In this document: positions 746-38,400 of the stretch, in pieces | Position numbering within the stretch: position 1 is the first letter of the stretch | How the letters are laid out: the number at the start of each line of letters is the position of its first letter | NCBI GenBank assembly: GCA_003990765.1 | Contig: RBNJ01000125.1 | Coordinates: 1 to 40,208, forward strand | DNA length: 40,208 nt | From: Jimgerdemannia flammicorona | Lineage: Eukaryota | Direction: 5' to 3' | Program-made: the position numbers and the translations under genes | The notes under the pieces: model-generated | What the model was told of the DNA's origin: nothing | The model's database searches: none | The model's input: the letters and a program-made list of their open reading frames with translations, nothing else

Positions 746-2005
746 AGAAAACTACAATTGTCAGTATAGATTCCAGTATTGGTACAGATAGTTGTATAAG
801 TTCAGAGTACTGGTAGAATTTCAGTAGTACAGAAAAAGAATGCTGGAAGAATTCAGAGTCATATAGGATTAGAATGCCAGTGGAAGGATTAACTGTTATA
901 TAGAAAAAGGATGCTGGCAGAATTCAGTATCACCAAGAACTCAGAGCAGAAAGTTCAGACCATGGGGGCTTCATCCTCATTGCTGTCCTCAAAGAAGATG
1001 AGGTCTACAAATATTTCATCCATTTTGCATGCTTTGTCATATGTTTCACATATATCATACAGGATGATGTCATCACCAATGATGTCATCACATTTGGCAG
1101 TAGGGAGAGCAAGGAGATCAGGAGCTCTCTAGTCTATGAGGTCCTCTTCCACAAAATAAGAGACAAATGTGGGGTCTTGGAGAGGTCTAATCTGGATGCT
1201 TGGACCTTGGAATACTGAGATCAATCCTTATAGGAATTGATCTGGATTGTTCTAGAGGATGGAATACCTAAACTCTTCTATCTTGTCACTATTGAGGGTA
1301 ATAGTGGACTGGGCTTCTATAGCCACCATGACTTCTAGTATATTGATACAGTAGGCTGACAGATCTCTGAAGTCTGAGACTCTGGTATACTCCAAGTTGG
1401 AAATTGACCATGGTGCATATCTAAAGATCTGATAAATCTTCTTGGCTATTCTTATTTTATATATCTATGAGAGTGGTATCTTGTAGCTCTTGAGAGTTAG
1501 CTTGAGGGAATTTCTAGTAGAGGAGGTTTTCTATTTCATATTCTTATCACATCTAGAGGTATTCAGTAGCAATGGTGATTCTTATTTCCATCTTACAGTA
1601 GTAGAGAATATAATGATAAGGATCACCAGTACCCAGATTGAAACTAGAAGTCCTTGTGGTGTGGGTCTTTATGACTCTTCAGATGTCTTGAAACATCCTT
1701 TCCTAGACTGAGGGGCCTTGGTGATTTCTTGACCTTAAGGTTTGGTAAGCAGCAGGCATTTTGTTTGTGATAAGTCTTTGAGCTATTTCAGGATTAGTGG
1801 ATCTTGTTGAGTTGCTGCTACTGTGGTTCCTTGATCTTTCTTTTATATTCCTTGAGATGTCTGTCTTGTGGTCCTAATGGCTCATAGTTAGTCATCATTG
1901 CTCATCTTATAGCATGCTGTAAGATCTTTTTGTACTCCAATCTGATGGCTTATAAGGAAAGACTGTCTCTTATACTGATGTCATCATTCTAAGATCACTA
2001 TTACA
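746..2005 (-). repeat. Third copy of the element-B family LTR (solo or 5' LTR), interrupted by the LINE at 745
   Basis: Reverse complement starts TGTAATAGTGATCTTAGAA like 13234 and aligns to 13234-14290 and 21860-23010. No PPT precedes it. Contains the same embedded reading frame. Confidence 0.85.
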
Positions 2006-4512: not shown

Positions 4513-4515
4513 ACT

Positions 4516-9778: not shown

Positions 9779-9788
9779 TCAATAAAGT

Positions 9789-10430
9789 ATGGCCACAGCT
9801 CTCAAGATTACTAGTACTATACAATGAGCTATAGAAATACAATAGTATACTACCAAGCCACCCACAATAGAGGAATCCTTTAACAGTATCCAAAGTATAG
9901 TATAGATATATTTATTATAAATTTCACACTTCAAGACCTATCAGAATCAGAAAGAGCTTCAAGAATACTTTAAGTTAGAATAGGCAATCTAAAGAGATAA
10001 GATAATTTAAAGATAAGAAGTTTGAGAACTATAAGACCTTGGGAAGGTACTCCAATAAGAACCAGAGATGGAAAAAGAAGACTGGATCAGAGAGTGCTAG
10101 CTCTCTTATACTTAGATCACAATTACCAAATGAGTTAATAAGTTGTTCAAAGATGATGAGCCAGCCCTAGTCCATTTCTAAGAAGTAGTTCCAGGAGACT
10201 TTAGATATATTAAGAGATACTATTGAGAATATAATGATATAAATTACACAGTACAAAGAGATATAAATTATAGAAGCTTGGGAGTTTGAGTAAAATGTTT
10301 CAGAGACAAATTACCTATTCAGGAGAAAGTTGTGATAGTTGATCCAAATTAGTAATATAAATTAGAGGAATTAGACATTTGATTACAGTATCTAAATCTA
10401 ATTCCTAATATAGCATAGCCTTATAAATAG
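9789..10430 (+). pseudogene. Element A accessory ORF3 (unknown protein), overlapping the PPT and the start of U3
   Basis: Single frame from ATG 9789 (MATALKIT...DLGKVL...ITK.VNKLFKDDEPALVHF...); every internal stop is one transition away from a CAA/CAG/CGA/TGG codon. The true end is uncertain (10352 or ~10430). Confidence 0.65.
10320..10330 (+). promoter_or_regulatory. Polypurine tract of element A
   Basis: CAGGAGAAAGT immediately before the TGTG of the 3' LTR; B has AGGAGGAAGA at the same position. Confidence 0.75.
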
Positions 10431-12012: not shown

Positions 12013-12519
12013 TTAGTTATTATTCTAATATGAGTAGATATCTTCAACATCTACTTCTGTTCTATTATCTTCTTTAGTTTCAGAGCTATATACTCTATTC
12101 TAAAGACTCCTCTTCTTCTTCAGAATATAATATCTCAATATGATAAATGATATACTGGTAAGTAGTAAGGGTCATTCTTTGGATATCTCTAAGATAAAAT
12201 TAGGCCTGAGTTAGTATTCCTGTATTTTGCTTATAGATAGTTCTGCTATAATGACATTTCTTTAGATGAGGCCTGTGATATATCTGTTATAGTTATACTT
12301 GGAGGTTGAGAGATCTTATAGTTGGTCTTTAATAATATAGAATATCTATAGTTAGTAGATTTCTATAAGTCACTGAACTATAGTAAAGTTCTCTTAATAA
12401 ATCTGAATTAATTGAAAGTGATTGTTAATAGTTTATCTAAACTGAGATAGAAAAATTAGTAGAGCTTGAAGAGAACTGAGAATAAGAGTTTAGAGATACT
12501 GGTCAATTCTTTAGGTCAT
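12013..12519 (-). pseudogene. Element D accessory ORF3
   Basis: MT.RIDQYL.TLILSSLQAL...LIEIY.L.IFYII aligns with element C ORF3 IDQYLQTLVLSSFQAL...LLQIHQLQAYYTI. Confidence 0.7.
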
Positions 12520-12559: not shown

Positions 12560-13233
12560 CTGAAGTTCTCAGAGTATATTTTTAAATTAGATACTTGTTC
12601 CTTTAATATTGTATATAAGATAAAGTTCTTCTCAGTTGGATTTCAGTTTAATAGTAAAGTTTATTTTGATCATATTTTTTCAAACTAGTACTTGATCTCT
12701 AATCTTGAGCTTCTGTTCTTTCTGCTTCTAGTTATAGAACTTTTTTTTATCTTTTCTAGTTCTTGATTATCTGAGCTCAGACTTGATTATATAATTGTTC
12801 TGTCTTTTGAAGAGGTCTCTAAGATGCTCATGATCAGTAGTTCTGGTTTTTTTTTTTTTAACAAATATTATCTTAAATAGCTTTGTTTGACAGAAGTAGT
12901 AGGGGTATACTGAATTTTCCATAAGATCTCAGGTAAGCAGAGGTCTCTATTGATAGAATTAACTTAGTTAAGTCTCATCTTAATAGTTTGGTCCATTTGT
13001 TCTATCATATTATTAGTTTGCAGATAATATAATATGATTTATTTCAGGTAGATTTTGTGAATTCAAGCATAACTTATTAATGAATTCTATATCTTGATCA
13101 GAGATAAATTCTTCAAAAGATCTATATTTGAGTGTGAGATCATAGAGAAGGTCAATAATGATCAAGGCACTAGCAATTTCCATTAGAAAAGCTTCTGGTC
13201 ATTTGGTTAGATATTTAACAAATACTAAGATAT
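12560..13233 (-). pseudogene. Element D integrase core and C-terminus (split by insertion of element B)
   Basis: ILVFVKYLTK.PEAF, ISDQDIEF, YYLQTNNMIE, KLKSN.EELYLI. Confidence 0.8.
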
Positions 13234-16178
13234 TGTAATAGTAATTTCAGAATAGTAATATCACAACAGAAGACAGTCTTTCCTTATAAGCCATCAGATT
13301 GGAGTATAAGAAGATTATATAGCATAACTCATCCAGGCTATAAGATGAGCAATAATGACTAACCATAAGTCATTATGACTATAAGACAGATATCTCAAGG
13401 AATATAAAAGAAAGATTAAGAAACCACAGTAGCAGTAACTCAAACAAAGCTCACAGAAATAGTTCAAAAGACTTACCACAAACAAAATACCTACTGTTTG
13501 CCAAACCTCAAGGTCCAGGAACCACCAAGGCCCCTCAGTCTAGGAAAGAATGTTTCAAGATATCAAAAGAGCCATAAGGACCTACAAGAAGGACTCCTAG
13601 CCTCAACCTGAGTACTGGTGACCCTTATCATTATATCCTCTACTGCTATAAGATAGAAACAAAGATCACTATCACTACTGAATATCTCTGGATGTAGCAG
13701 AAATACAAAATAGGAAATCTTCTCTACTGGGAATTCTCTCAGGCCAGTTTCCAAGAGATACAAAATACTACTCTCATGGATATACATGAAATAAGGATAG
13801 TTAAGAAGATTCATCAGATCTTCAGATATGTACTATAGTCAATTCTCAAATTGGAATATGCTAGAATCTCAAACTTTAAGAAATTGTCAGCCTGCTATAC
13901 CAATGTACTGGAGGCCATAGTGGCCACAGAAGTCCAGTCTATCATCACTCTCAATAGTGATGAAGTAGAAGAGTTCTGAAATCCCATCATCCAGGACAAT
14001 CTAGATCAATTCTTACAAGGATTGATCTCAGTATTTCAAGGCCCCAGCATCTAGGTTAGACCTTCTCAAGACTCTACATTTGTCCCTTATTTTGTAGAAG
14101 AGAACCTCATAGATTGGAGAGCCCTAGATCTCCTTGCTCTCCCTACCACTGAATGTGATGATGTCATCAGCAATGACATTATCCCACTAATTGATAATAT
14201 ATACAAAATAGATGAAATGTTCACTGATCTCATCTCCTTCAAAGATATCTTATCTCTAATCTCTAGTTTTGATGATAGTGACAAAGATAACTATCTTTCT
14301 ATATATGGGTCAGTTCTATCATAACCTTAGTGAGAGTAGTAAGTGGTCATCTGGGAGAAGGTCCTGCAAGATTGGAGAGATTGACATCTATCTTTGGTGG
14401 GATATATTATAATTTTGAATGTCTACAGGTTACTGAAGTTGTAGTATTTGGTATATTATCTTGACTTTCTAGTCTGGGTAGTGAAGAGACTATTGAAGCT
14501 AGCCAAAGATTGAATCTGGGCTGGGTGGAGGAGCCAGATTAGCTGAGATATCTTATCACTACTAGTGGCTAGAGGTGGCCTTAGGCTGGTTGACTTCTCT
14601 AAGAGATTGCATTATCTGAGAGCATGGTGGCTGAAGAGAGCAGTAGAGCTAAGGGGTGATAGCTGGGTTCCTCTGTTGATAAAGATTTGGGAGATAAAGT
14701 GCTTGTCAAGAGAGTCTACTGGAGATTTACTATCCTTGGTTGGGCTTCCAAATACCAAGTGAATGAGATTTAAGAGATTCTGGTGAGGTATAGTGAATGG
14801 GGCTCACCAAATCAGCATTTGCTAACAAGGGAATGAAGGAGAGGTACCTGGGGACCCAGCAATATAGAGATGGGATCAAGTGTTGCTGAAGGGTACCCTC
14901 CTTATAGACTTTGATATTAGTGATGGGGTCAAGTATTAGAGAGAGTTGGGACAGGATGTATGGCCTAGCAGTTGGCAGCTAGCAGATATTGAAAAGGAGT
15001 AGGACTGGAATGGAATCTGGAATTGGAGTGCTGAGATTCAGCAATAGTTGCCACCTAAGTACTGGGTGGTCTGATGGTACATACTATAGAGAAATATCAT
15101 GCTGAACTTCTGCTCAGACCACCTAGTAGAGGGGGGGAACTTTGACTGTAAGGAGTGCTACAATGTAGGACAGGAAGAGAGATTTGTACAGACATCAGAA
15201 CATTGGCTAGGAGAGTGTGAGATACTTGGGGACTTTTGATTAGCAGTTGGGAATCAATTGGGGGTAGTGAGAAGGGGGGATGATGTGTGGGGTCAATGGG
15301 AGGATCTGAGAGATAGATTGGTAGAGGGGATTGAGAAGGAGTGACTCATCCTGGGTTGGGTGTTAGTAGTATGGGTAGGGCTGACAGGTCACTGGTTGTA
15401 CGTTTTTGAGAAAGGAAAGTATTTGAGTTTAGAAGAGCAGTTGATAAGATGGGAAGATTTGATGGGGATATTTTGATGAGCTGGTGAATGGGGTGAGGGC
15501 TGTAGAGTAGTTAGTGGTACTATTTAGTAGAGAAAATTTGTGAACAGAGTAAAGAGAGAGTTGGAGTAATGGGTGAAAAGGTGGTATTCAAGTATGAGAG
15601 TATAAGGGGAGGGGCAGGGGGGGGGCCTAGGGGGATTGGGTAGTGGGTAGGAAGTGTGTAATTATATTTGATAGATTGGTAATAAATAGTGAAGTCCAAG
15701 TAACTATAAAAAAAAAAATAAAAAAAAATAGTAATGAAGATAAAGCCCTGATGGTCCTAAACATTCTGCTCTAAGTTCTTAGTACTACTAAAATCTACTG
15801 GCATCCTGAACTTGTACAACTATTTATACAGGTACTTGAATTTGTACTTATAACTAAAGTTTTCTATATTCCAGTATTTTATTTGATTATTGGAATTTAT
15901 ATTTAGTTTTATATCTTAGCAACTATTGAATTATATTTTGTATAAATATCTCTCTTATTTCCTTTGAAATAAAGTCAGTCAAGTTCACTTACACTCAATT
16001 CTATACAAGCAACCTAAGAGATAATAAGACAGTTTAAAGATAAGAAGTTTGAGGACTATAAGATCTTGAGAAGATACTCCAATAAGAACTTGCTTATAAC
16101 AAACTTGTAGTTAGTCTAAGAGATATATCTTGAAAAGAATCTGATATATTTGAAGGACTCAGCACTTAGTATGTAACA
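13234..16178 (+). repeat. Element B 5' LTR (interrupted by LINE 14291-15727)
   Basis: TGTAATAG...ATGTAACA; aligns to 21860-23320 once the LINE and its TSD are removed. Confidence 0.88.
14291..15727 (+). mobile_element. 5'-truncated LINE with poly(A) and 16-bp TSD
   Basis: Aligns to ~28606-30044; A-tail at 15707-15728; TSD atagtgacaaagataa (14275-14290) / atagtaatgaagataa (15728-15743). Confidence 0.92.
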
Positions 16179-16181
16179 ACT

Positions 16182-18810: not shown

Positions 18811-18989
18811 CTATGCTGCCACCAAGATTATCAAACTTGAGCACAAAAAAGACAAGAATCAGAACAAATACATATATACCATTGGAGAAAACTTTTCCCT
18901 AGAAGAAAAACTTCTCAAGATCCTACACCAGAATAAAGAAGTACTTGCTATAGACTTCAGGGACATCTATAATCAAGAACCCAAGTACT

Positions 18990-21501: not shown

Positions 21502-21859
21502 AATGTGATGACAACCCATGAGGTTCTAGTCTGTGAATTATAACAGTATGTCTTGTGACCAGCAGGAAATCTGTCTGGACCATTATCTAAGAGATACAGT
21601 ACTAGTAACTACTCATCTATAAAACTTTTGAAGCCAGAGGAGTTTGAACCATCAACTGATTGGTCAAGATTAGAATTAGGCCCTTGCTCTATATAAAGGG
21701 AGCAACTCTTCACCATCAGGCCAAAATACATAAGAAAGATACCAGTCTATAAATACTTCTTTTTGACTCCCTGCTAGAGGTTATAGAATCAGCAAAAATT
21801 TTCAGACTAGATCAATGAATAAGGATATTCAAAAAGAAGATTCTTATTCAGGAGGAAGA

Positions 21860-23320
21860 TAATAGTAATCTTAGAATAGTGATATCATAACAGAAGACAG
21901 CCTTTTCTTACAAGCTACCAGATCAGAGTATAAGAAGATCATATGGTATAACTCACCCAGGCTACAAGATGAGCAATAATGACCAACTATGAGTCATCGT
22001 GACTAAAGACAGATATCTTGAGGAATATAAAAGAAGGATTAAGAAACCACAGTAGCAGCAACTCAAACAAGGCTCACAGAAATAGTTCAAAAGACTTACC
22101 ATAAACAAAATACCTGCTGCTCACCAAACCTCAAGGTCCAGGAACCACCAAGGCCCCTTAATCTAGAAAAGAATATTCCAAGACATTAGAAGAGCCATGA
22201 GGACTCATACAAGAAGGACTCCTAGCCTCAACCTAGGTACTGGTGACCCTTATCATTATATCCTCTATCACTATAAAATAGAAACAAGGATCACTATCAC
22301 TACTAAATGTCTCTAGATATAGCAGAAATATGAAATAGGAAATCCCCTTTACTGAGAATTCCCTTAGGCCAGTCCCCAAGAGATATAAGATGCTACTCCC
22401 ATAGATATATGTGAAATAAGAACAGCTAAGAAGATTCATGAGGTCTTCAGATATATACCATAGTTAATCCCCAACTTAGAGTATACTAGAATCTCAGACT
22501 TTAAGAAATTATCAGCCCACTATACCAATGCACTAGAGGCCATAGTAGCTACAGAAGTTCAGTCCACCATTACTCTCAATAGTGATAAAGTAGAAGAGTT
22601 CTGGAATCTCATCCTCCAGGACAATTCAGATCAATTTCTACAAGGATTGATCTTAGTATTCCAAGGACTCAGCATCTAGGTTAGACCTCCCTAAGACCCT
22701 ACATTTATTTCTTATTTTGTGGAAGAGAATCTTATAGATTGGAGAGCTCTGAATTTCTTTGCTCTCTCTATTGCCAAATATGATGATGTTATCAGTAATG
22801 ATGTTATTCTGCTAATTGGAAATATATGCAAAATAGATGAAATATTTACTGATCTCAATTTCTTTGATAATAGTGACAAAGATGAAGCCCCTATAGTCCT
22901 AAACATTCTGCTCTAGGTTCTTGATATTACCAAAATCTACTGGCATTCTAAACCTGTGTAACCATTTATACAGACACTCAAATTTGTACTTACAACTGAA
23001 GTTTTCTATATTCCAGTATTTTATTTGATTATTGGAATTTATATTTAGCCTTATATCTGAGTAACTAGTGAATTATATTTTATATAAATACCCATCTTAT
23101 TTCTTTTGAAATAAAGTCAGTCAAGTTCACTTATACTCAATTCCATACAAGCAATCTAAGAGATAACAAGACAGTTTAAAAATAAGAAGTTTGAGGACTA
23201 TAAGATCTTGGGAAGGCACTCTAATAAGAACTTGCTTATAGCAAACTTGTAGTTAGTCTAAGAGATATACCTTGAAGAGAATCTGATGTATTTGAAGAAC
23301 TTAGTATCCAGTAGATAATA
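21860..23320 (+). repeat. Element B 3' LTR (PPT at 21850-21859)
   Basis: Direct repeat of the 5' LTR, preceded by AGGAGGAAGA; terminal dinucleotides are eroded. Confidence 0.88.
22170..22916 (+). pseudogene. ORF embedded in the element B LTR (ORF3 family, about 250 aa or more; start uncertain)
   Basis: One frame ...GTGDPYHYILY...QKYEIGNPLY.EFP...TAKKIHEVFRY...ISDFKKLS...DEIFTDLNFFDNSDKDEAP; most stops are sense codons in another LTR copy; indels of 15 and 30 nt between copies preserve the frame. Confidence 0.72.
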
Positions 23321-23801
23321 TATTTATTTCTTCTTAATATATATAATAAATAAGAGTCTATAATATCTACTCTCTATCTTTGAAAGATGTAGATTAGTAG
23401 TATAATTAGTTATAGTAGTTCTTGATAGTTCTTCTTTTCTTAATACTTCTGGCAGATGTTATATGTATTTCTTGAGTATATTTCTAACTTGTATTCTGAA
23501 ATTTGAGTCAGTATTAGTATATTGTTTATAGCTTTTCTTCTATATTTGTCTGTCCTTAATGGGCTTTCTGATTTTCTTATCAGATGAGATTCTCTTGTGA
23601 TTTAATAGTTATAGAAATTTTCTTTAGAGTGCAGTTCCTTAATATTGATTTATTAGAGTTAGTGAGAATATATATAAACAATTTATAGACTTTCTCTACT
23701 TTATAAATAATAGTGATTTTGTAATCCTATAAGATCAGAATCCAGTAGATTAGGTTTTCAGTAGATTTATTTTACATAGTTGAATAACTATATGAGAGTA
23801 A
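23321..23801 (-). pseudogene. Element D RNase H end and integrase N-terminus
   Basis: LI.LFNY...LIYWILIL.DYKITIIYKVEKV (RNase H end); NICQK; FQR.RVDIIDS...RRNKY, continuing at 13233. Confidence 0.75.
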
Positions 23802-24231
23802 TGTAATATGCCTGGCTCAATAGAGACAAATTACAAGGTTGGGGGTTAATGTAGTTTGGCTTGAGCCTCCAGTTACTTTGTCAAAAAGCAACAAAATGTT
23901 CTAAGATTCCTGAGATCCTTGGTGTTTAGTAGTATAATAGTCAAAACTGGATATCTGTGAGCGATTTCCTTATTGGGATGGTTCTCTGGATATAGTAGTG
24001 ATTTGTATGTGAATGGATTTCCTTCTTGAGTCAACTGGGAATTGGCAGAATTCATATATAGCATAATGAGTTCCTTATGTATGACAATCTGGTAATTTAG
24101 TAGTTTCCTTCTTAGGTGATAGTGATCTCTGTATAACAATCTCTGTATACATCTTTCTCCGGTAACATTCAGGTTACACAATCTTTTGGCAACACTTTCA
24201 ATACAGTTTCTGGAGAAAAGCTACTAGTATC

Positions 24232-26262: not shown

Positions 26263-26292
26263 AGATGGATTGCGAACAAACTGTATTTCATT

Positions 26293-29200
26293 ATGAACAG
26301 TACAACCAACATTTTTTCTTTGAACGTGAATGGGCTGAGGGGCACAGTTAGATGCAGGAACATTTTTATCTGGTTGAAGGGATTGGAGGCCGATCTCTTC
26401 CTCTTGCAGGATGTCAGGTGCGAGGATGATTCTGATAGAATGGAATGGTCTAAGGAATGGGGTGGTATGGCGATTTGGAACAGCAAGGTCAGGATTCTGG
26501 TTCAGAAAGGCAGAGGGGAGATAAGGGATGTGAGGAGCTGGGGGGAGAGACTGGTCTGGGGTGAGTGGATTTGTGCAGATTGGGAGCCAGTCACAGTTGG
26601 CTCTTGTTACTGCCCTGCTGTGCAGGGGGAGCATGTGGATTGGGTGAAAGGGCTCCTGAAGAGTGGGATCCTTGCTAAAGCTGGGTTGGATATGCTTGGA
26701 GGAGATTTCAATATGGTTCAGGATGTACAGCTGGATCAAACTGATGGAGGACGGGGTGCTGAGAGCAGGAGTGGGGGGCTGGTAATGTGGGAGGAGGTCG
26801 AGAGGCTAGGAGCACTGGTGGATGCTGGTAGGGAGTACTGGGGGAACAGGAGGGTCTATACACATTGGGCTGGTGGTCTGGGAACAAGGATTGACTGGAT
26901 GCTGACAGCCGACTGTTGGGGCCGCAATGTTTGGAAGGTGCTAGAGGTAGAATGGTGTCCATGGTCAGATCACTGGGGCCTTTTGGGACAGGGGTGTTTT
27001 GGGGGAAGTGGTGATGGGCCTGGACATTGGTACCTAAATTCCTCCTTGTTGGAGGATGAGTCCTGGTGGGAGGAGTGGGCGAAAGACATTCAGCTGAAAG
27101 TGGCAAATTGGCAGCAGGAAGGGGCCGAAATTGGGGTTCAGTGGATAAGGATGAAAGAGATGGCCAGGATGTATTGGAGTGAGACTGGCAGAGAGGCTGG
27201 GAAGCAGCGAAGGTAGAGAGTGCATTGGGCTTCTACTAGATTGGCTAGGCTCCTGGAGGAGTGGGCGAGACTGGTAGTCATAGAGGGAGTAGAGAATTGG
27301 AGAATAACGAGGGTGAAGATAGAGGTTGGGGAACTACAACAGGTGCTGCGGGAAGAGGAAGAGTCAAGAATACAAGGCCTGGTGGCACAGCTTCATTGGC
27401 AGGGGCTGGAAGAAGAGGAGAGGCCTTCCAAGTTTCTCACAAGGACACTTTGAGTGAGAAGGGTACAGCAGTGGTGGGAAGGGGTACTTGACTCAGATGG
27501 TATGCTAGTGCATGGTGTACAGGATATCCTTGGAATGCTGAAGGCGTGATGGAGTAGATTGTGGAGTAAGGAGGAGGGTGGGGCAGATGCTATAGCTATT
27601 GACCAAACATTAGAAGATTGGCACCCACTACAAACTGAGGGATTAGGTGACCTGGTGATGTTTGTAAAGGAGGAAGAGATCCACTAGATTCTTGCCGTGA
27701 CAGCCTCGGGTATGGCGCCTGGGGAGGATGGCCTCCCCTGGGACTTCTGGAAGTAAATGGTTGGAGTCTTGGGCATGTTGGGGGAGTTGACAGCACTGTG
27801 CGACTCTATATTGCAGTCAGGGAAATGGGTGGGGGAGCAGGATCTTGGGCTGGTGATGCTGCTTTATAAGAACAAAGGAAGGTGAGAGGATTGGAAGAAC
27901 TGGTGGCTGATAATGTTGCTAGATATGGACAGAAAGTTAGTGACTAAGGTGGTGGTCGCAAGGCTACAGAAGGTGGCCCAGCAAATTGTGGGTGTTGAGC
28001 AGAGGGGCTTCATAGGGGGTCAGCTTATTAGAGATGGCACAGCCTGGGTACATAGAGTTATTGAAGGTACTTGAGCCTGTGGACTGGATGGGCATCTTGT
28101 CTTCTTGAACCAGGAGAAGGCTTATGACCGGATGTGGTGAGTCTGGCTGGCGAAAGTATTAGATAGAATTGGGGTTCTGGTCCCATTTCAGTTAGCGATG
28201 GTCAGCCTACTGGAAAGGAGTAGGGCTGTACTTGTGTGTAATGGGCATAGAGGGGTAGCATTCCCTCTAGGTAGGGGAGTGCCCCAGGGGGACCCATTGT
28301 CCCCCATTTTGTATGCTCTTTCCCTGGAACCTCTCATGGACAGGATTTGGCAGAGGATAGTGGGGCTCTCTATCTATGGCATTGGCTGGAAAGTTGGAGC
28401 CTTTGCAGATGACATGGTGGTTGGGTTGAGAGTGACGGCAGATGTTGAAGAGCTCAAGAAGACAGTGGAGTGGTATGAGGAGAACTCTGGGGCAAAGCTG
28501 AATTGGCATAAGTGCAAAACAATGGTACTGGGCAATGACCTGGTGGGCGGAGAAGTTATTAGAACAATTGTCCCCACCGGAGAGGCAGTGTGGTACTTGG
28601 GCATTTATTTGTCGGTCTATGGGTCTGTTCTGCCCAGGCTGTGGTGGGAGCAGAGGATTGGAATTTGGGAGGAGGACCTGCAGGGTTGGGGGGGAAGACA
28701 CTTCTCTCTGGTAGGAAGGATCTCAATTTTGAATGTATACTGGCTGCCGAAGCTGTGGTACTTGGCTTATCATCTGGACTTCCCAGCCTGGGTGGTGAAG
28801 AGATTGGTGAGGGTGGCCAAGGGATGGATTTGGGCTGGCTGACAGAGTCAGATTGGTTGGGAGACTTTGTCCCTACCAGTGGCAAGAGGTGGTCTTGGGC
28901 TGGTAGACTTCCCCAAAAGACTACACTGCTTGAGAGCATGGTGGCTTTGGAGGGCAGTGGAGTTGCATGGAGGGGACTGGGTTCCCCTACTGCAGAAGGT
29001 TTGGGAGAGGCAGACATCTCCAAGAGGCTTGACTGGTGATCTTCTTTCATTAGTTGGGCTTCAGAATACTGTACAACTGAGATATAAAGGCTTCTGGTGG
29101 GGGATAGCTGAGGGAGCATACCGCATTGGTATTTGCTGGCAAGGGGATGAGGGGGAGAGGGCTTGGGGCCTGGCGATGTAGAGATGGAATAGCATTCTTC

Positions 29201-29949
29201 TGGGAGGCATGCCTTTACTTGAGTTCGATATTGGTGATGGAATCGAATGCCAAAGGGGACCAGGCCAGGATCTGTGGCCTAGTGGTTGGCAAGGAGTAGG
29301 AATTGGTGAGGAGTGGGACTGGCATGGGGTCTGGACCTGGAGTGCCGCAGTGAAAAATTGGATGCCGCCGAAGTACTGGGTGGTTTGGTGGCATGTGCTG
29401 AGGAGGAATGTGATGCTTAACTTCCGCTCAGGACACCTTGTAGTAGGGAGCTGCTTTGACTGTGAGGAGTGCCATAATGTAGGGTAGGAAGGGAGATTTT
29501 TACAGATGCCGAAACATTGGCTAGGGGAGTGTAAGGTATTGGGGGACTTTTGGCAGGCTATTGGGGACCGCTTGGGGGTACAGCATAGGGGTGATAATAT
29601 ATGGGGGAAGTGGGAGGACCTGAGGGATCAATTGATAGGAGGGGTAGGGGAGGAGTGGATTACTCTAGGCTGGGCATTGGCTATTTGGGTTGGGCTGGCC
29701 AGCCACTGGCTATTTGTATTTGAGGAGGAGAGGAGACAGAGCTTGGGGAGCAGGTTATCATGGTGGCAGTGCCTTATGGAGGATACCTTGACAGGCTGGT
29801 GGCTTGATTGGGGGCCGCAGGGGAGTCGGAGGCACTGCTTGGTGGTGAAAATCTGTGGTCAGAGTGGTGGAAGAGTTGGAGTTGTTGGTGAGAGGGTGGT
29901 CTTTATATATGAAGAGGTGGGGAGGGGCCCCTCGATGGGGATCAGATAG
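26293..29949 (+). pseudogene. LINE ORF2: APE endonuclease, reverse transcriptase, C-terminal Cys/His knuckle
   Basis: SLNVNGL, LLQD, GGDFN, RIDW, SDH (APE); NQEKAYD, GVPQGDPLSP, FADD, YLG, GGLG (RT); CEEC...HWLGEC. In-frame stops present. Confidence 0.95.
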
Positions 29950-30007
29950 TGGGTGGTGCTATTGTATACTTATTCATAGACTGGTAATAAAGACGGAGTC
30001 CAAGGGA

Positions 30008-30044
<37 letters not shown>

Positions 30045-30045
<1 letters not shown>

Positions 30046-31134
30046 AATCTCTATATAGTATGATGATTTCCAAAAGTATGTGATTTCTGGCATGATGATC
30101 TTGTGTAGCATGATGATCTTCCTTACTGAGAATTGTACTAGTGGCAGATTCTTCACTGAGAACAGATAAATAACTTGGATATCATGGATTCTTTCTGAAT
30201 CAGCAGCTTTAACTGGGAATGTGGCAGATAACTTAGAAATGGTGAATGATATAGCTTCAGCTTCAACTAGAAATACTACTTGAATGGTGTGAGTTCTTCT
30301 GAATCAGGCTCTTCTGGGAATATGATGGTGCAGATTCTTCTGAATCAGTGGGCTTCTGGAAAATAACTCAGATGGCACGGATTCTTCCTGAATCAGCAGC
30401 TTCAACTGGGAAATGTGCTGGCAGTTTCTTAGAAAGAGTCTCTTAGCAAAGTTGCATCAAAGACTGGCTTCATTTATACAAATGGATTACTGCAAAGTTG
30501 CATCAGAAACTGGCTTGAGCAAGGCAGCTTTCTGAAAATGTGGTAAATAACTTGGAAATAGCAGTGAAGTTCTCCTTGAACTTGGTAGTAAACTTGGATT
30601 CTTCAGGCTTAGTCTGGCAAGTATACCAATAGCATGGCTTATTTCTTAAGTGACAGGTTCTTCAGACTTAGTCTGGCAAGTGTATCAATAATTCCAAAGA
30701 CAGCAAAGTTCTTTACTCAAACTTGGTAGCAAAATCTTCAAGCTTTGTATCAGAAAGTGGACCAGAGTGGGAATAAGAGGACCAATGCTCAATCTTTAGA
30801 GGCTTCTTTGGTTTGTACTTCAATTCAGACTGAGGTTTATTCACTCTTGTCTCTAGAGTAATTTATACAAATTGGTTGCTATCTGGTTACTATGTGGCTA
30901 ACTATAGATTTGCTACTTATGACAAGTATATAGAGTCTGTATGGTGTACAGGACCTGTACAGTGTACAGAGTCTGTACAGTATATAGAGTCTGTACAGGT
31001 AAACAGACCCTATCTGGTATGTCTGGCTAATTATACAAATTGGTACAGTAAAGCAGTCTTAGTTACCTAGTATACCTGTTATGATATATATGACTATTTT
31101 GTAATCTGGTAGTTCAATTCTGCCACTTATCACA
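30045..31134 (-). repeat. Element C 3' LTR, U3/R portion with internal repeats
   Basis: Starts TGTGATAAG after the PPT; 4 x 18-bp units at 30925-30996; repeated gattcttctgaatcag(cagcttcaactggg) blocks at 30185-30415. Confidence 0.78.
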
Positions 31135-31174
31135 TTAGCCCCCACTAAAGAATGATCTGTCCTCAGATTGTTCT

Positions 31175-31678
31175 TTAGTCATCATCCCAATATGTATATG
31201 TATCTTTGGTATCAATATCTATTCTATCATATTCATTGTCTATACTAGGGTCACTCTATTCTATGGGCTCTTCTTCTTCTTCAGGGAATAGAATTTTGAT
31301 AGAATTGATGAGGCTCAAATAGGTAATAGGGTTCATTCCTTGAATGTCATTCAGGAAGAACTGTGTCTGTGTCAGAGCTGTGACATTTCATTTGTAAATG
31401 GTGTATAGTCTATTTGTAGCAGTAGTGTCTCTTCTGGTCAGACCTGTGGTGTTCCTGATGTAGATCTGCTCCAGGGTTGGGAGGTTTTGCAATTGTTCAC
31501 TGATTGTATAATAGGCCTGCAGTTGGTGGATTTGTAGTAGGCATCTGGCTAGGGTGAGATTTTCTTAGTGAACTTGGATCTTCTGAAAGGGGTTTCCATT
31601 AGCTTGGCTGAATTGGGGTAGAGGAACTGGTAGGGCCTGAAAGGAGCTGAGAACCAATGTCTGAAGGTACTGATCAAT
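31175..31678 (-). pseudogene. Element C accessory ORF3 (start codon lost at the deletion junction)
   Basis: IDQYLQTLVLSSFQAL...QLQAYYTISEQLQNLPTLEQIYIRNTTGLTRRDTTATNRLYTIYK...EEEEEPIE.SDPSIDNEYDRIDIDTKDTYTYWDDD* in one frame. Confidence 0.75.
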
Positions 31679-32075
31679 CCTTTGGCTTGCCTTGTTCCTT
31701 CAGTCAGTTCAGATACTTCCTGTAATTGTGGGGTCCTGACCTTCATGAAGACTGCTTGTACAATCTTCTGTCCTCTAATGATTCGGTGCCATTCTGCACT
31801 ACTATTGTATAGGATAACCTTGATCTCACCTGTATATCCTGGGTCAATGGTTTCTCCTTCTATAGTTATTCCTTGTCTGGCAAGTCTAGACCTTGAGGTC
31901 AATTGGATGTAAACTCCTTGGGGTGGCTGTATGGCCAATCTGGTTCTGATCATGAAGGTTTTTCCAGACTTAATAGATTCATCCTCCAGACTGTGTAGAT
32001 TATACTCTATATCCTCTGGGTGGGCTTTGGTCAGAGGTTTGGCCTTGGGATGTAGCAGGGCATACTGAGTAATGT
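31679..32075 (-). pseudogene. Element C dUTPase (motif 5 truncated)
   Basis: LLHPKAKP, EYNL, SRSRLA, EGETIDPGYTGEI, KIVQAV, RQAKG. Confidence 0.9.
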
Positions 32076-33359
32076 CCTTGCTGAGTTTGGGCTATCCTAG
32101 GGCTGAAGCTCTACTAGCAAAGAGCCTCCAGGCTCTGAGGTTGAGGTGTGGCCATCTGGCTCCAGTAGAGGGGTCTCAGAGATAGTTTATTCCTCTTCTT
32201 CCTGTAGGGTCTAGGGCTTCTATGAAGTTGGTGGCATCTTCTGTCCATTCTTGGCAAATTGTATATCTGATGAAAGCTAGGATGTCTTCTCCTAAATCAT
32301 AGATCTTAAGGGTCCTCTTTCCTAGCTTTTTGGTCTAGCTTTTTCATATCTGGCTTCAGTTATCTCCTCTTTTCAAAGTGTGAACTGCAACATCATGACT
32401 GAGATGGATCTTCTGATGCCTGCAGTCTCGGCAGTCTAGATGTCTCCTATGGTTGCAATATCCCATTGCTCAAAAATAATGTTCCCATTTGTTGATCTCT
32501 TATTGTTTTGGGAATTGGTACCCATCTTGATCATAAGTGGGTAGAAGAGTAGACAAGAGATATACTTCTGTCTGGGTGAAGAGGTCTTGTCCCCTAAATC
32601 AGCTTTGCAACTTGGTGGTAACTTCTTGAAAGGTGGTTGACTGTACAAGTGTAGTTGGGGGTTCTGGTCTCTGGGGTCACTGTTTTTCTTGTTGGTCCAA
32701 CAGATGACACTGATAACAGTAGTCTTGGGGAGAGTGGAAGACCATTTGGTGTGGATATCTTCCTAGCCAAAAAGCTTTTTCTTGATGAGTTTCTTTCTTG
32801 GGAATAATAGTGATTGTACTGGGTTCTTCTTCTATATTCTAAGGGTCATTATCTTTGGGTGGTATCCAGCAAGAGTCATTCCAGGGAATGAGTTCAGAGA
32901 CTTCTTCCTCTTCAGATACTTCTTGTTCAGGAACTTCTTAGTCAGGAACTTCTTCTTTCTCAGATGATTCTTGTCCCCAAATTGCTTGCACTTCTGTAGC
33001 TTTAGTTGCAGGTGTTTCTGGAACATGTCTACATTTCTTCTTCTTTCTTCTGCACTCTGGGCAGGCTGTACCAGGCGATTTTCTTATTCCCATGATCTTG
33101 GAGGAATACTCAGAATACTTGTGTCTCTTGAGGCAGGTAGGGCATTCTTTGATTTCTCCTGCAATGGCTCCAATGGCAATAGGGATAGTATTCTTGGCCC
33201 ATATATTGTCTTCTGGTCTGTCATCCACCAGGTTAATTTGGGAATTGAGTTGGAGATCATTTCCATCTTCAGATTCTTCCTCTTCTTCTGTGGTAGATTC
33301 TTCACTACTGGCATATTCCTCCTGAATAGTGACCTTCTTTTTCTTCTTTGATTGCTCAT

Positions 33360-33735
33360 AGCTGGTTATCTTAACTCTATACTTCTTGCCTTGATAGTCA
33401 AACTTGAGTACTTGTTGATTAATATCAACAACTGCATTTATTTCCTTCATTCAGTTGGTGCCAAGAATCATATCATAGGTGATAGCTTTGGTAACAACAG
33501 CTTTTGGGATGGAGAACTGAATGTGTCTAAGAGAGATGGTGATATTTCATACTTCTCCAAGGGGTTGAGTTCGGGCTCCATCTGCTACTATAATGCTGAG
33601 GTTGGATGGTCCATCAATGGGTCATTGGAGGGTGTCCAGGAATCATTTAACAATGATACAGATAGCTACTTCTGTATCTATGAGGATTTTCACTTTTTGT
33701 CCTCCAATATCTCCTTATAAATAGGTACTGATATG
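33360..33735 (-). pseudogene. Element C aspartic protease
   Basis: ILIDTEVAICII (eroded DTGA), ADGARTQPLG, YDMILGTN. Confidence 0.8.
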
Positions 33736-34299
33736 TCTTTCTGCAGCCTGAATAGGAATGGATACTAGTTCTTGCTGTGGGATAGGAACTTGGCCAGTGC
33801 TAGACCTGATGGTTCTCAATAATTTATTTCGGACTCCAGCTAGTGTCAGTTGCAGGAACTGCAGGAGAGAGACTTCCATCTTGGCTTCTTGAATCTTCTG
33901 CCAGGCTTCATTGTAGATATCTCTAGGTATGGTTTTTGGGGTGTACTTCTTCTTGAACTTTGAAGCAGCAGGTTTCTATTCTTCTTGTTCCATTTCTTCA
34001 TTCTCTGGTGGTTGCTCATTTGTCTCAGAGATAAAAGGTGAAGGAGTTCAGAGAGATGTTTCTACTTATTCCTCTTCATGTTCTTCATCTTCCTCTTGGA
34101 TGATTCTTCTGCTAATATTCCTAGATGGTCTTCCTACAGATCTCTTTCTTTTCTCTACTGGATAGACTGTTTTCTGAGTTGTAATCTTGGTGGAATATAA
34201 GTCCAGATCACTGTAGTCTTCACTGTTACTTGCCTCTTCGAAATCTTCAATAGAGTGAGCTTCAGTATTTTTGTACTGGATGTCATTCCTTTGGTTTGA

Positions 34300-35440
34300 T
34301 GATTCTGAGTCCCTTCAGTCACTTCTTTTGTTGTCACATTCAGTGGCATAGTATCCAAATTGTCCACAGTGGAAGCATTGGACTTGGGCTCTGTCTTGAA
34401 CAAGATGTCTTCTTTCTTCTTGCTGGTAGTTCTTGTTATCTCTTAGTAGGTAACCTTGGCTCCTCTGTGGTGGGTATCCTCTGTTGTCTTGGTAGCTCTG
34501 ATTTTTATATGTGGTGAGTTTTTTAATCTGTCCAACCAATCAGTCCAATTTGGAGCTGAGGTCTTGGATTTTGCTTCTGCCCTTTTTTCCTTCCTTGGCT
34601 GGCCTTCTTTCTTCAGATCTTTCTTGTTCTTGAAGGAGTCCTTGTAGGGCTTTGACCAGGATATCTTTTTTATCTTCTTTCTTGTCATGATTACTCTATG
34701 TAGTTCCTTGTCTGACATCAAAGAATCCTTGGACTGCATCTACTTGCTCTTCAGACCTTCTGATATCTAGGGTGCAGACATGCTGGGCAATGTTCAGGGG
34801 AATTCCATTCATGAAGGTCATTGGACCTATAATGTCCTGATTAGTGGCATTGAACCTGGCAGCATACATTCTCTTCTGAATTCTTATAAAGAAGGCTCTG
34901 GGTAATTCTCCAAGATTCATCTTCATCCTTATGATAAATTCTTGAGCCTTGTAGTGGGTTTCATTTCCTACATACTTTTCAATGATCCAGTGGACCATGG
35001 TCTCATATTATAGCTTATAAGACATTGCTGCTTGTATCTGTCTCACTAGTTCTGAATCTGGATTATTTGTTATTCAGTGAAAAATTCCTCTAGCTGGTTC
35101 TCTGAGCTAAGCCTTATAGATGGTGATTTTTCTTTCATCTGAGAGATTCCTCATAGCTGCAATTCCTTCAATTCCATCAAGAAATTCTCTGGGATCTTCC
35201 TCTGGATATCCTGCAAAGGTTGGCAATGAGGTGGTCATTTCATTATCACTTTCTTCTGATTCTGGTTCTGGTTTAGATTCTGATTCCGATTCACTTTCTG
35301 AGCTATTACTGGAGATGGGGGTGCTTGGATATCTTGAGGATGATGTTCTGGACCTTAGATGAAGTGGAATAAGCCTAGGTATTCTTGTAGAAGCTACTTC
35401 CAATTCTGTAAGAAGTTGTGGTAGAGGTTCTATTGGTGAG
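34300..35440 (-). pseudogene. Element C gag with zinc knuckle
   Basis: MTTSLPTFAGYPEEDPREFL (ATG ~35238; may extend upstream), TFMNGIP, CFHCGQFGYYATEC. Confidence 0.85.
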
Positions 35441-35444
35441 ATTG

Positions 35445-38400
35445 ATGTGGAGAGGAGGGCAAAAGCCTGGAAGCTGTATGAAGAGTCGATACATCTGGAG
35501 GTCATGGATGGGAAATGTATCCATACTGACAGGAGGCAGTGGGAGTGGGCCCAGGGACATAAGAAGCAGAGAGAGCTTCTGACAAGTATGAAAGGAGGGG
35601 TGAAAGAGAAGTTGGTTTAGGCTGAGGAGTCTGGAGGCATTGAAGCCAGCATCTGGGCTAGCAAAGGAGGAAAGGAGGTGGAGGTGAATGAGGTAGGGGC
35701 TGGGAAGGCACTGGACAAGAATCTCTATGCTGATGGTACATTCAAAGTTTGGGAGCAGGATTTGGATGGCACCCCCCCCCCCCCCCCCACTTATCAGGAG
35801 AGGCCTGATTGGGAAGAGAGGGGCAGTAGAGGATATGCTGATGTAGGGGGCCCAGCAAGTTCACTTTGGGGTCCCAGATGTAGTGAAAAGGGGCCAGGTG
35901 GTGGCAGTTGGTGAGGACAAGCTGGTGGATGTCTCAGAAGAGAAGTGGGATAAGGCTGCCAGTGTGGGAGCAGATACTACAATGCTGGATGTAGGGCAGC
36001 CAGGGACTCCTAGAGGGAGGGAGGTGGGGAATCTGCTGTAGATGAGTAAGGTGATGGATAACCTTGCAGCTGAGCAGTTGGGAGAAGTTAACCTGCATGT
36101 GATGCTGGAGGAGTATTGGGCATGAATTCTGTGTGGAAATGGGGTAGTGGAGGCATTGAAAGCAGAGATACTTGCGATTTTCAAGGAGGAGGAGAGATAT
36201 GTGGTAGATGTGGTAAGGGAGGCTGAGTTGGTGATTGTTACTGGTGAGCAGGCTGTCTATTGTTGGGCAGAGCATCATGGGTTACAACTCTGGCAGGAGG
36301 TATGCCTAGAATACTGAGAGGACTTCGAGGAAAAGAAGGATGGGGCAATGGTGGAACTTCTGACTAGGTTGGAGGTACAGGCAACTGAAGAGAAGGTACT
36401 GGCTGCAGAACATGACTTGGACTTGGCACAGGAGGAGCTAAATGCAGATTTGTAGAGGGCACAATTGATAAACAATATTATTCCTTATGAACAGTACAAC
36501 TAGTATTTTTTCTCTGAATGTGAATGGGCTATGGAGATTGGGGTGGTATAGGAACATTTTTACTTGACTTAAGAGATTAGAGGCTGATCTCTTCTTACTG
36601 CAGGATGTATGGTATGAGAATGAGGAAGATTAAGTAGAGTGGACTAGAGGGGCTACTGCTTGGAATGGCAAAGTGGTAATTCTGATGAGGAAGGGTAGAG
36701 GGGACTTGGGCAGAATTCAGAGCTGAGGGAACCATTTGGTCTGGGGAGAATGGCACTGACCTGGGTGGGAATTGGTGAGAGTTGGCTTCTGCTACTGCCC
36801 TGTGATTAGGGGTGAGCAGATTGAGTGGATTAGGGATCTGTTGGAGGAGGGTGTTTTCTTAGAGGAAGGTGTTGATGTTCTAAGAGGTGACTTTAATATG
36901 GTGTGGGATCCACAGCTGGATAGAACTGATGGAGGAAGGAGTGCAGGTGGGAGGAGTGGTGGACTGGATAAGTGAGAGGAGGTGGAGAACCTTAGCTCCT
37001 TAGGAGATATGGGCAGAACACAGTGGGGTGACAGGAGGGTCTATATATACTGGGTAAATAGACTGGATACAAGGATTAACTGAATTCTGATGGCTAAATG
37101 TTGGGGTGCTGATGTTTGGAGGACTCTGGAGGTGGAGTGGTGCCCTTGGTCCAATCACTGGGGGCTATTGGGGCAGGGACAGTTTGGGAGGAGTGGAGAT
37201 AGACCCAGATATTGGTGTCTTAACTCCTCTCTGCTGGCTGAGAAGAGGTTGTGGGACCCATGGATAGAGGATGTCCAAGTGAAGATCACTACCTAGATAT
37301 ATGAGGGATCATCTGTAGATGTCTGGTGGAGGAGGTTAAAGGAGGCCACAAGGGTTTATTGGGGAGGAGCTGGTAGGGAGGCTGAGAGATAGAGAAGGAA
37401 GTGAGTACAGTGTACTTCTAATAGGCTGAGTAGATTGCAGATAGAGTGGGCCAAGTTGCTTCATTCTGAAGGAGTAGAGGATTAGAGGTTAGAGCAGGCA
37501 AAATTGAAGGTAATGGAGCTGTAACAAATATTGCGAGCAGAGGAGGAGATTCATATAAAGAAATGGCTGCCAGACTATGATGGCAGGGGCTTGAGGAGGG
37601 AGAGCAGCCCACTAGGTACCTGTTGAGGCTTCTCCAAGCTAGAAGGGTGCACCACTGATGAAATGGGGTCTTGGATGCCGAGAGAGATATGGTGTATGGT
37701 ATGCAGCAGATCTTGGGAGTACTGAAGGGAAAATGGAGGGGTCTGTGAAGTGAGGAGAAAGGGGGAGCTGATGAAGAGGCAATTGAAGACACACTGGAGG
37801 AGTGGGTGCCACTGCAAGTAAAAGAACTAGAGGATTTGATCTTACCAGTCCAAGAGGAGGAGATCCAGAGAGTCCTTGTGGCAACTAAGCTGGAGATGGT
37901 GCCAGGAGAGGATGGGTTACCTTGAGACTTCTGGAAGAAGATGGCAAAGGTTCCTGGAGTGTTAGGAGAGATGGCTGCCCTCTGTGATCATGTTCTTCTT
38001 AATGGAAAGTGGGTTGGCAAGCAGGACTTGGGGCTGGTAGCCTTATTGTATAAAGATAAGAGGACTGGAAGAACTGGAGGCCAATCATGCTTCTGGATAT
38101 AGACAGGAAGATGGTGACTAAGGTGATTATTGTGAGGCTACAGAAGATTGCCCAACAGGTTCCAGGTGAGGAGTAGCGAGACTTTGTAGAAGGCAGACTT
38201 ATCAGGGATGGGACTGCCTGGGTACATGGCATCATTGAGAGGGTCTGGGCTTGCAGACTGGATGGTAGACTGGTCTTTTTGGACCAGGAGAAGGCTTATG
38301 ACCATGTTAGGTGGGTATGGCTAGGCAAGATGCTAGATAGAATTAGTGTTCCCCCAAGGTTTTGGGCTTCTATGCTGAATTTGTTAGAGGGCAGTAGGGC

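Follow-up and report, generated by a model that had tools for sequence, protein, structure and literature searches.

A conserved, apparently unannotated post-pol gene family of Ty3/gypsy elements, represented by a dead copy in an internally deleted element of Jimgerdemannia flammicorona

Introduction

Additional open reading frames (ORFs) that run in the sense direction and lie between pol and the 3' long terminal repeat (LTR), termed aORF-3S, are known in LTR retrotransposons (PMC7264820). Among fungal Gypsy elements, a dUTPase lies between protease (PR) and reverse transcriptase (RT) in PosPlaTy3-5 and is also found in elements of Phanerochaete and Tuber, and the legend of Figure 3 in the same source lists, for some elements of this group, an "add. 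ORF" whose function is not known (PMC2864245). We describe here a post-pol ORF, ORF3, from a stretch of Jimgerdemannia flammicorona DNA (contig RBNJ01000125.1, positions 1 to 40,208, hereafter the window), flagged on the minus strand of a Ty3/gypsy element, element C. A sequence-only reading had proposed a conserved sense accessory ORF between pol and the 3' LTR in each of four elements, A to D. Such an ORF is present in the C/D lineage and a second one in the B lineage, while one core common to all four was not recovered.

Accessory genes distinguish complex retroviruses from simple retrotransposons. In foamy viruses, the accessory gene 3' of pol encodes Tas/Bel1, a protein of ~300 amino acids (aa) that joins a nucleic-acid-binding body to a C-terminal acidic activation region, takes part in positive feedback on the LTR, and is served by an internal promoter. 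To our knowledge, very few of them have an established function beyond the viruses of vertebrates; the CERV protein of the Cer1 element is a recent case.

The flagged ORF and its family

A single minus-strand frame of element C, from 31699 down to 31178, translates as ..SQRIDQYLQTLVLSSFQALPVPLPQF...HQLQAYYTISEQLQ...TTATNRLYTIYK...ILFPEEEEEPIE.SDPSIDNEYDRIDIDTKDTYTYWDDD and carries ..TIS-x26-ATNRLYTIYK.., EEEEE and ..YTYWDDD, the motifs and spacing that had been read there. The serine in TIS had been reverted to glycine in that reading ("TI(G)"), in agreement with the family consensus YAIG. Translation of the frame with stops read as X (P0002) gave five phmmer matches among 1.84 billion representative proteins, every one at an expectation value (E) of at most 1e-10 and at 52-68% identity, and a profile search recovered 15 proteins at E <= 0.001 from 986 candidates. 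These proteins (P0004-P0008 and P0023-P0032) constitute an unnamed family that we refer to as C-type ORF3. All 15 come from short environmental contigs, and the two that bear a name are called just "hypothetical protein". Four are uninterrupted full-length homologues of 171, 172, 169 and 183 aa; their identities of 49-70% to P0005 indicate that they are not near-identical recent copies of one sequence. A hidden Markov model (HMM) built from the database proteins alone matched the C frame (Table 1) and copy D at 12019-12519, the latter in two frames (E 1.1e-20 and 1.2e-15), and no other match in the six-frame translation of the window was better than E 3.9.

Stops interrupt the frame in both window copies, three times in C and 14 times in D. 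In C the stops fall where homologues have Q/L, R/W/Q and W, as expected when C-to-T and G-to-A changes hit CAA, CGA or TGG, and TGG; the first stop is likely derived from CAA, the second from CGA or TGG, and the third from TGG. The C-terminus ..W-[DN]-D-[DN], followed immediately by a stop, is found in C (YTYWDDD, TAA) as well as in 7/7 database sequences that reach the end. When C was compared with L001, its sole DNA relative in the comparison, the 164 codons showed 29/18/41 transversions and 37/20/46 transitions at codon positions 1/2/3. This ordering of differences, 3>1>2, points to a constrained reading frame. These comparisons identify the flagged stretch as a dead copy of a genuine accessory gene of ~170 codons, C-type ORF3, and the family, judged on sequence conservation, is a real, conserved and apparently unannotated one whose function is unassigned. 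Since all ORF3 copies in the window are broken, they can perform none of the functions proposed below.

Internal deletion in element C

The flagged ORF had been described as lying downstream of integrase (IN). This holds for D, where the C-terminus of integrase lies upstream, and fails for C, where ORF3 adjoins the dUTPase domain, in the +1 frame relative to it, and does not share the reading frame of gag-PR-dUTPase. C and D become homologous at ~31683, inside the last dUTPase motif. After its dUTPase, the database protein P0003 continues ..TRQTKGFGSSDKKEV.. (..TKGFGSS..) into pol; in C, ..TRQAKG is followed at this point by QRIDQYLQTL.. in the +1 frame, the ORF3 sequence beginning with codon 3. 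The junction was placed by setting the C, D and L001 DNA side by side, together with motif 5 of A and B (KGFxST / DFGST). From the end of the dUTPase domain to the LTR only 526 nucleotides (nt) remain in C, filled by ORF3. The Pfam scan of the window covered 99 of 183 stop-to-stop ORF pieces of at least 60 aa, those in 1-24220 and 30834-35616; none of the 24 pieces in 30834-35616 contained an RT, RNase H or IN domain, and C has PR-side sequence and dUTPase only.

Element C is shown by this arrangement to be an internal-deletion derivative, missing the interval between the end of dUTPase motif 5 and ORF3 codon 3. As a result it lacks RT, RNase H, IN and the ORF3 ATG. The 10 nt at the junction suggest that the deletion took place at a microhomology; counting against this step, the microhomology in the parent of C assumes that motif 5 read KGF there, as in A, B and P0003. 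The copy also carries a warning for annotation, in that it seems to be an ORF after integrase until the internal deletion is recognised.

Intact context and the pol stop/ORF3 start overlap

The arrangement expected before deletion is seen in L001, in which RT/RNase H and integrase are followed by ORF3 at 1790-2224. Its pol frame ends ..LKKYFPTPP-TGA, and this TGA (1791-1793) overlaps the ORF3 ATG (1790-1792) as ATGA. ORF3 thus follows directly on integrase with an ATGA overlap in L001; D has both integrase upstream and ATGA, and C has neither. Methionine stands at the ORF3 start in 11 of the 12 database sequences that cover it, and the next residue is T, N or I. Since the codons of these three residues all begin with A, ATGA is kept in those 11, the pol stop itself not being visible from proteins. 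In L001 a hairpin (-15.6 kcal/mol, z -1.89) lies 20-60 nt upstream of the AUGA. In the intact context (L001, copy D), ORF3 ends ~25-40 nt ahead of the polypurine tract. The Pfam scan also found protease, RT and integrase pieces in the scanned regions, in the domain order PR - dUTPase - RT - (RNase H) - IN, and the C-type lineage is shown to be Ty3/gypsy with a pol dUTPase between protease and RT.

Protein features and models

The first ~130 residues of the four full-length C-type proteins form a basic body with an isoelectric point (pI) of 9.1-10.3, and the last 40 residues contain, as composition only, 16-18 D/E, no K/R and 7-10 W/F/Y/L/I. Two tryptophans are conserved in this tail, one in ..LEWSD.. 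and one in ..YW[DN]DD at the very end (..AYxYW[DN]DD-COOH). The acidic/aromatic tails that had been ascribed to B and C were found and are conserved in intact homologues; the body of B-type proteins (see below) has a pI of 4.4-5.0. No segment resembling a transmembrane (TM) helix was detected: the maximum Kyte-Doolittle mean over 19 residues is 0.94-1.36 in the four C-type proteins and 0.48-0.74 in three B-type proteins, so that 7/7 intact proteins stay at or below 1.36. The threshold for a TM segment is 1.6, and the earlier description of the protein as non-env is borne out. Three other identities, an env protein, a chromodomain and a host gene taken up by the element, were discarded for want of a TM segment and of a Pfam match. 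Toward the N-terminus, a leucine-rich, proline-containing segment (..LQTLILSSFQSLPIPLP..) is conserved and fits a nuclear export signal (NES)-type pattern in 12/13 sequences, these being the ones that match the anchor pattern; the pattern is non-specific, with a class-1a match in 870/2000 shuffles of P0024.

A helix-turn-helix (HTH) protein loosely resembling DUF3102 or DUF1016 had been suggested. Pfam assigned no family to P0002 (E <= 1) or to P0024, P0025, P0033 and P0034 (E <= 0.01), none of the five matched a retroviral accessory family, and no fold match was obtained; the suggestion finds no support here. The AlphaFold2 (AF2) monomer of the C-type protein (16 rows) reached a predicted local distance difference test (pLDDT) score of 49.5 and the B-type model (10 rows) 35.3, values too low for a fold to be assigned from either model. 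Modelled as two copies, P0024 residues 1-135 scored 0.55, with the best of three controls at 0.05, and passed the mark set by the tool; this is a confidence score only, obtained with no alignment for a protein that is partly disordered. That mark was reached by 21/30 proteins solved as one-chain pairs and by 0/23 solved as single chains; among eukaryotic proteins it was reached by 17/29, but by only 1/7 of those for which no relative had been solved earlier. Agreement between runs is at least 94% of contacts, with a partner pLDDT of 85 or more, and the interface spans residues 30-84 in antiparallel fashion (52 with 52, 45 with 56, 63 with 38). From this model we infer that the ORF3 body may pair as an antiparallel homodimer through its long central helix.

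The other elements in the window

Element B has a post-pol ORF that profile searches place in a different, longer family than the C-type (B-type, P0033-P0039). Intact database homologues of 215-271 aa number 7 proteins (1724 candidates), ending ..DLISFEDI..DEDEAPxxLNFLL. In the window the B-type profile matches only 22197-22913, 13584-14291 and 949-1669, with none in the flagged C region. The pol-to-LTR stretch of B measures 1.39 kb and is repeated at 13236-14239 and 2003-879. The B ORF had been located inside the LTR; only its last ~15 codons lie there (LTR start ~22866-22869). Profile-profile alignment of C-type against B-type by hhalign gave a probability of 3.3% and P 0.013, exactly over the region aligned in the sequence-only reading, YAIG..AAxRIYTLYK with YEIG..VKKIHQIFR. 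In the controls, 5/200 column shuffles reached the real score, and reversed profiles scored 16.8 and 17.3 against 23.3. The similarity claimed between the B and C proteins is therefore best called suggestive, not significant.

Right after the B pol stop (TAA, ~21490), a plus-strand frame starting MTTHE.. occupies 21505-21700. Its ..SSIKLLKPEEFEPSTDWS aligns with the acidic ..LFPEEEEEPLEWS (..veilfpeeeeeelews) of the C-type profile, and the search of the post-pol spacer 21505-22110 against that profile gave E 0.04 for a single sequence, confined to 20 acidic residues, a value without significance. Element B might carry a shortened remnant of the C-type upstream of its own ORF.

In element A, the ORF read earlier at 9789-10430 proved to contain 21 stops in 214 codons, to cross the purine tract AGGAGAAAG and to enter the LTR (start ~10331). 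Neither the C-type nor the B-type profile matched A at E <= 10, and nhmmer found no match in A with a C/D/L001 DNA profile or with L001 alone. In a local DNA alignment that tolerates transitions, A reached z 5.5 with L001 and z 3.2 with C (mononucleotide shuffles), was collinear with both and ranked 3/310 control windows against each; in this alignment, ITK*VNKLFKDDE of A lies over ATKRIHALYRQNE of L001. By frameshift-tolerant protein-profile alignment A ranked 43/356, and 81/356 in the transition-aware version, the score of which merely tracks AT content. On the missing profile and nhmmer matches and the rank of 43/356, A was dropped as a member of the C-type family; it may still hold an ORF3 relic. 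The segment 9907-10062, which holds the "DLG" motif thought to be shared with the B ORF, is homologous to the B LTR and not to the B ORF (71-74% DNA identity to the B LTRs, E 3.5e-18 and 9.3e-21). It matches an internal part of both B LTRs (15932-16089 and 23074-23231) and is absent from the LTR of A itself, which suggests past recombination between lineages or capture of post-pol sequence into the U3 of B. The pol end of A reads ..LKKYHG-TAG at 9775-9783 (plus strand), where an ATG precedes the stop by 7 nt (ATGGCTAG), a further overlapping stop/start, from which the frame used in the sequence-only reading opens.

Over 611 nt, copy D shares 64% identity with C; 10 nt are deleted from its ATNRLYTIY region. 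The two differ by 173 transitions and 83 transversions, and at 124 of the transition sites C has C/G and D has T/A. The LTR of C matches those of A (10546-10669, 4248-4363) and D over 30805-30929, and its start matches that of the A LTR, TGTGATAG at ~10331. Short tandem-like repeats (gtacag.gtctgtacag) occupy 30930-31000 (plus strand) of the C LTR, and a 239-nt inverted self-match lies at 30857-31095. Between protease and dUTPase, the C lineage has a linker of ~1.3 kb (32100-33450, minus strand; ~470 aa in P0018, where PR occupies 518-607 and dUTPase 1084-1206) without a Pfam match; the corresponding gap in A is ~350 nt.

Element C lies between two plus-strand copies of a non-LTR retrotransposon (24166-30040 and ~35800-40208), which are ~72% identical and 10174-10194 nt apart; the 5' LTR of C was not found. 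This long interspersed nuclear element (LINE) has an Exo_endo_phos endonuclease domain at 26263-27213 and RT domains at 28141-28839 and 38177-38560. Its first copy ends in an A-run near 30000-30040 and has a single frame from 24166 to 27213 with just 3 stops; the plus strand is strikingly G-rich (GC skew +0.3 to +0.5 at ~52% GC). A very AT-rich minus-strand region at ~2650-3650 lies just upstream, on that strand, of an LTR-like piece at 2632-2469. It ranked 2/310 against the C ORF3 region and 4/310 against L001 in the transition-tolerant DNA comparison, and may be a fifth, very degraded post-pol region.

Table 1. Coordinates of ORF3 copies, related post-pol ORFs and element features in the window
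Feature	Position	Strand	Remarks
C-type ORF3 pseudogene, element C	31178..31687	-	without first 2-4 codons including ATG; three in-frame stops; database-only HMM E 3.7e-75
Terminal stop TAA, C ORF3	31175..31177	-	directly after ..YTYWDDD; place of the C-terminus in 7/7 end-reaching database homologues
In-frame TAA, C ORF3	31565..31567	-	aligned homologues Q (11 sequences) or L (2)
In-frame TGA, C ORF3	31388..31390	-	aligned homologues R, W or Q
In-frame TAG, C ORF3	31256..31258	-	aligned homologues W in 8/8 clearly aligned
dUTPase domain, element C	31660..32091	-	open frame 31552-32091; Pfam PF00692 E 1.2e-18; 60% identity to P0003
Deletion junction, element C (putative microhomology)	31676..31685	-	10 nt CCAAAGGATT fits dUTPase motif 5 end (..A K G ..) and ORF3 codons 3-5 (Q R I)
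gag zinc knuckle, element C	34318..34539	-	CFHCGQFGYYATEC; from translation; no Pfam match for the piece; zf-CCHC found in related P0020
Purine-rich tract, element C	31135..31146	-	AGTGGGGGCTAA; just before LTR; aligned with D; candidate polypurine tract
3' LTR, element C	30805..31134	-	starts TGTGATAAG at 31134; far end unmapped
Element D (3' fragment)		-	integrase C-terminus, ORF3 region 12512-11921, then LTR
Integrase C-terminal region, D	12596..12796	-	directly upstream of D ORF3; matches A 9516-9698
Copy D of C-type ORF3	12019..12519	-	ATG kept (12517-12519); 14 stops in 169 codons
LTRs, element A	4031-4513, 10330-10819	+	repeat/BLAST maps
pol pieces, element A	PR 5851-6320, dUTPase 6673-7008, RT from 7518	+	dUTPase Pfam E 6.6e-15
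Post-pol region, element A	9789..10330	+	size as C-type ORF3; no coding relic demonstrable
LTRs, element B	15727-16189, 22869-23331	+	repeat/BLAST maps
pol pieces, element B	dUTPase from 18566, RT from 19115, IN from 20498	+	dUTPase piece 18566-19111, Pfam E 6.4e-13
B-type post-pol ORF, element B	22197..22916	+	8 stops in 232 codons read; database-only HMM E 3.2e-108
Second B-type copy	13584..14291	+	HMM E 5.6e-106; 85% DNA identity to B 21860-22864
Third B-type copy, frameshifted	949..1669	-	HMM E 7.5e-74 and 4.5e-25 in two frames

Discussion

The explanation that fits best overall, to which we assign a probability of roughly 0.55 as a whole, joins the dead accessory gene in a deletion derivative, shown above, to an inferred role: the intact ORF3 would be a trans-acting adaptor of its element. 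A basic helical body of ~130 residues would dimerise and bind nucleic acid, either element RNA or LTR DNA; an acidic, aromatic tail of 40 residues would bring in a partner from the host or the element; and the protein would be translated from full-length RNA by termination-reinitiation at the AUGA. The parts of this reading differ in strength. We are highly confident that a genuine accessory gene, present here as a pseudogene within a deletion derivative, underlies the flagged stretch. That the product is a dimeric nucleic-acid-binding adaptor is tentative and falls somewhat short of an even chance, and the AUGA stop-restart, although the expression route we prefer, is more doubtful again. A basic body is a common layout among nucleic-acid binders and acidic tails recruit partners; acidic activation domains share such a tail composition, which is compatible with a transactivator or anti-silencing role. 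The leading specific guess, itself unlikely, is a Tas-like transcriptional activator of expression of its own element, and a cofactor of reverse transcription or integration takes the remainder of the odds.

A number of results count against the adaptor and its proposed route of expression. No DNA- or RNA-binding motif was identified in the ORF3 protein, and the Pfam negatives at E <= 0.01 extend to the intact proteins of both families. The best match of the C-type in a PDB sequence profile search was a coiled-coil protein at E 0.032, and the best ESM Atlas scores, 0.87 for P0024 and 0.83 for P0033, are at chance level. The C-type AF2 monomer, with its low pLDDT, consists of helices only, one of ~35 residues, and a Foldseek search of PDB with this poor model returned nothing at E <= 0.001 (best E 1.2); the dimer carries the limits of its model given above. 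On the expression side, L001 and, in degraded form, D are the only sequences whose DNA shows ATGA overlapping pol. The L001 hairpin is weak, 7/200 shuffles folding equally well, and comes from a single intact sequence. Reinitiation after a pol-length ORF would be unusual, and a spliced subgenomic mRNA would be equally possible.

Other readings of the same region were weighed against these points. That there is no gene at all, only a frame left open by chance within the element's 3' untranslated region, would suit the broken window copies and the origin of the database proteins as automatic predictions from short contigs; it is made exceedingly improbable by four uninterrupted frames of 169-183 codons at 49-70% identity to P0005, by the conserved start and stop positions, by the 3>1>2 pattern, and by the placement of all C stops at Q, R or W codons. 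Should ORF3 not be a separate protein but extend Pol/integrase at the C-terminus, through a -1 shift near the pol stop, it could be an integrase-tethered targeting module like the chromodomain of chromoviruses. L001 ORF3 does lie in the -1 frame to pol and is open for 20 codons upstream of its ATG, P0004, P0027 and P0028 read 19-41 residues further upstream in the ORF3 frame, and L001 pol stops right after the integrase C-terminal region, without a chromodomain. However, the start methionine is conserved in 11/12 sequences, the upstream stretches vary in length as a chance overlapping frame would give, and no slippery heptamer of the form X XXY YYZ was seen by eye in the 60 nt before the L001 pol stop, which leaves this reading improbable. 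An adaptor of the Rev or CERV kind, forming an oligomer on unspliced element RNA for nuclear export or packaging and not acting in transcription, is unlikely too, less so than a Pol extension. The basic helical body and modelled dimer suit it, as does the leucine-rich segment ..LQTLILSSFQSLPIPLP.. with its NES-type fit in 12/13 sequences; yet such patterns are common (870/2000 shuffles), there is no arginine-rich motif, Rev has no counterpart of the acidic tail, and the need for an export factor is not obvious if the element has no spliced RNA. Its precedent is the post-pol ORF of Cer1 that contributes to CERV, a protein that export of the genomic RNA requires (PMC10309623).

Two further readings concern how the ORFs of the four elements are related. 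The sequence-only reading had a single HTH-like nucleic-acid-binding protein, a transactivator or anti-silencing factor, in A, B, C and D. The marginal hhalign P value over the same region with lower-scoring reversed profiles, the collinearity of A with C and L001 at rank 3/310 each, and the acidic, hydrophobic tails of both families speak for it. Set against these are the probability of 3.3% with 5/200 shuffles reaching the score, the want of any profile or nhmmer match in A (rank 43/356 or 81/356), the homology of the "DLG" segment to the B LTR, and the lack of an HTH or DUF match in Pfam and of a confident model for the fold, so that we consider it very unlikely. A looser version, in which the B-type and C-type ORFs and the relic in A descend from one ancestral post-pol gene and were not acquired twice, fares better while still being the less likely course. 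The ORFs share position and strand, pol and LTR ends of the elements are related, the profile similarity is marginal over a collinear region, both tails are acidic and hydrophobic, and ..SSIKLLKPEEFEPSTDWS of the B MTTHE.. frame aligns with the C-type profile, although not significantly (E 0.04). None of the similarities is significant, however; the lengths differ (~170 vs 215-271 aa), as do the body pI values (9-10 vs 4.4-5.0), and C ORF3 and the B ORF show no DNA similarity (z 0.0 and 0.7).

The analysis yields a defined protein family with intact natural sequences, a second family at the same position in a related element, and a concrete candidate expression signal in the overlap of the pol stop and ORF3 start as ATGA. 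Should ORF3 turn out to activate expression, to export RNA or to assist RT/IN, it would illustrate how such elements deal with silencing by the host or with replicating in cells that do not divide; these elements also carry a dUTPase. A broader and rather speculative possibility is that a Ty3 lineage, probably fungal, has become "complex" in the manner of retroviruses, with a basic, dimeric helical regulator whose acidic, W-containing tail recruits partners, expressed from genomic RNA through AUGA, and a B-type sister lineage in which a diverged or replaced version of this gene extends into U3. The fungal label rests on literature about domain order (PMC2864245).

Comparison with known systems places ORF3 among several partial likenesses. 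It resembles Tas/Bel1 in its place 3' of pol and its acidic C-terminus; ORF3 is about 170 aa long, and its body is a putative nucleic-acid binder. HMGB1, bacterial single-stranded DNA-binding protein (SSB) and T7 gp2.5 likewise combine a basic body with a K/R-free acidic tail bearing terminal aromatics, which serves there to recruit partners and to compete with nucleic acid. Their folds are different (an HMG box in HMGB1, an OB fold in SSB and gp2.5), and the likeness to ORF3 is compositional only. Victoriviruses of filamentous fungi use an AUGA stop/restart that requires upstream structure (PMC6631646). L001 has the same stop/start overlap as the AUGA or UAAUG coupling of victoriviruses and hypoviruses, with a modest hairpin 20-60 nt upstream, but in those RNA viruses the ORF ahead of the overlap encodes a capsid (PMC6631646), whereas L001 is one intact DNA sequence with a predicted hairpin. 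CERV of C. elegans Cer1 is likewise a non-env product that draws on the post-pol ORF of a Ty3/gypsy element and lacks homologues outside its host group (PMC10309623). No relation in sequence between CERV and ORF3 is expected. CERV acts in trans on the RNA of Cer1 itself, where trans action of ORF3 is a proposal, and it has 517 aa and a 5-exon spliced mRNA starting in gag, whereas ORF3 has 170 aa and its own ATG overlapping the pol stop (PMC10309623).

A full-text literature search returned no description of the C-type or B-type proteins, although the "add. ORF" listed in the figure legend of PMC2864245 may coincide with one of them. The closest counterparts are the aORF-3S, which are like ORF3 in position, orientation, family-level conservation, absence of similarity outside transposons and unassigned function (PMC7264820). 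By their description there, sense aORFs of plants are mostly env-like with transmembrane segments, whereas ORF3 has none and is far smaller (PMC7264820). Additional post-pol ORFs are thus a known kind, to which C-type and B-type ORF3 add two apparently undescribed families.

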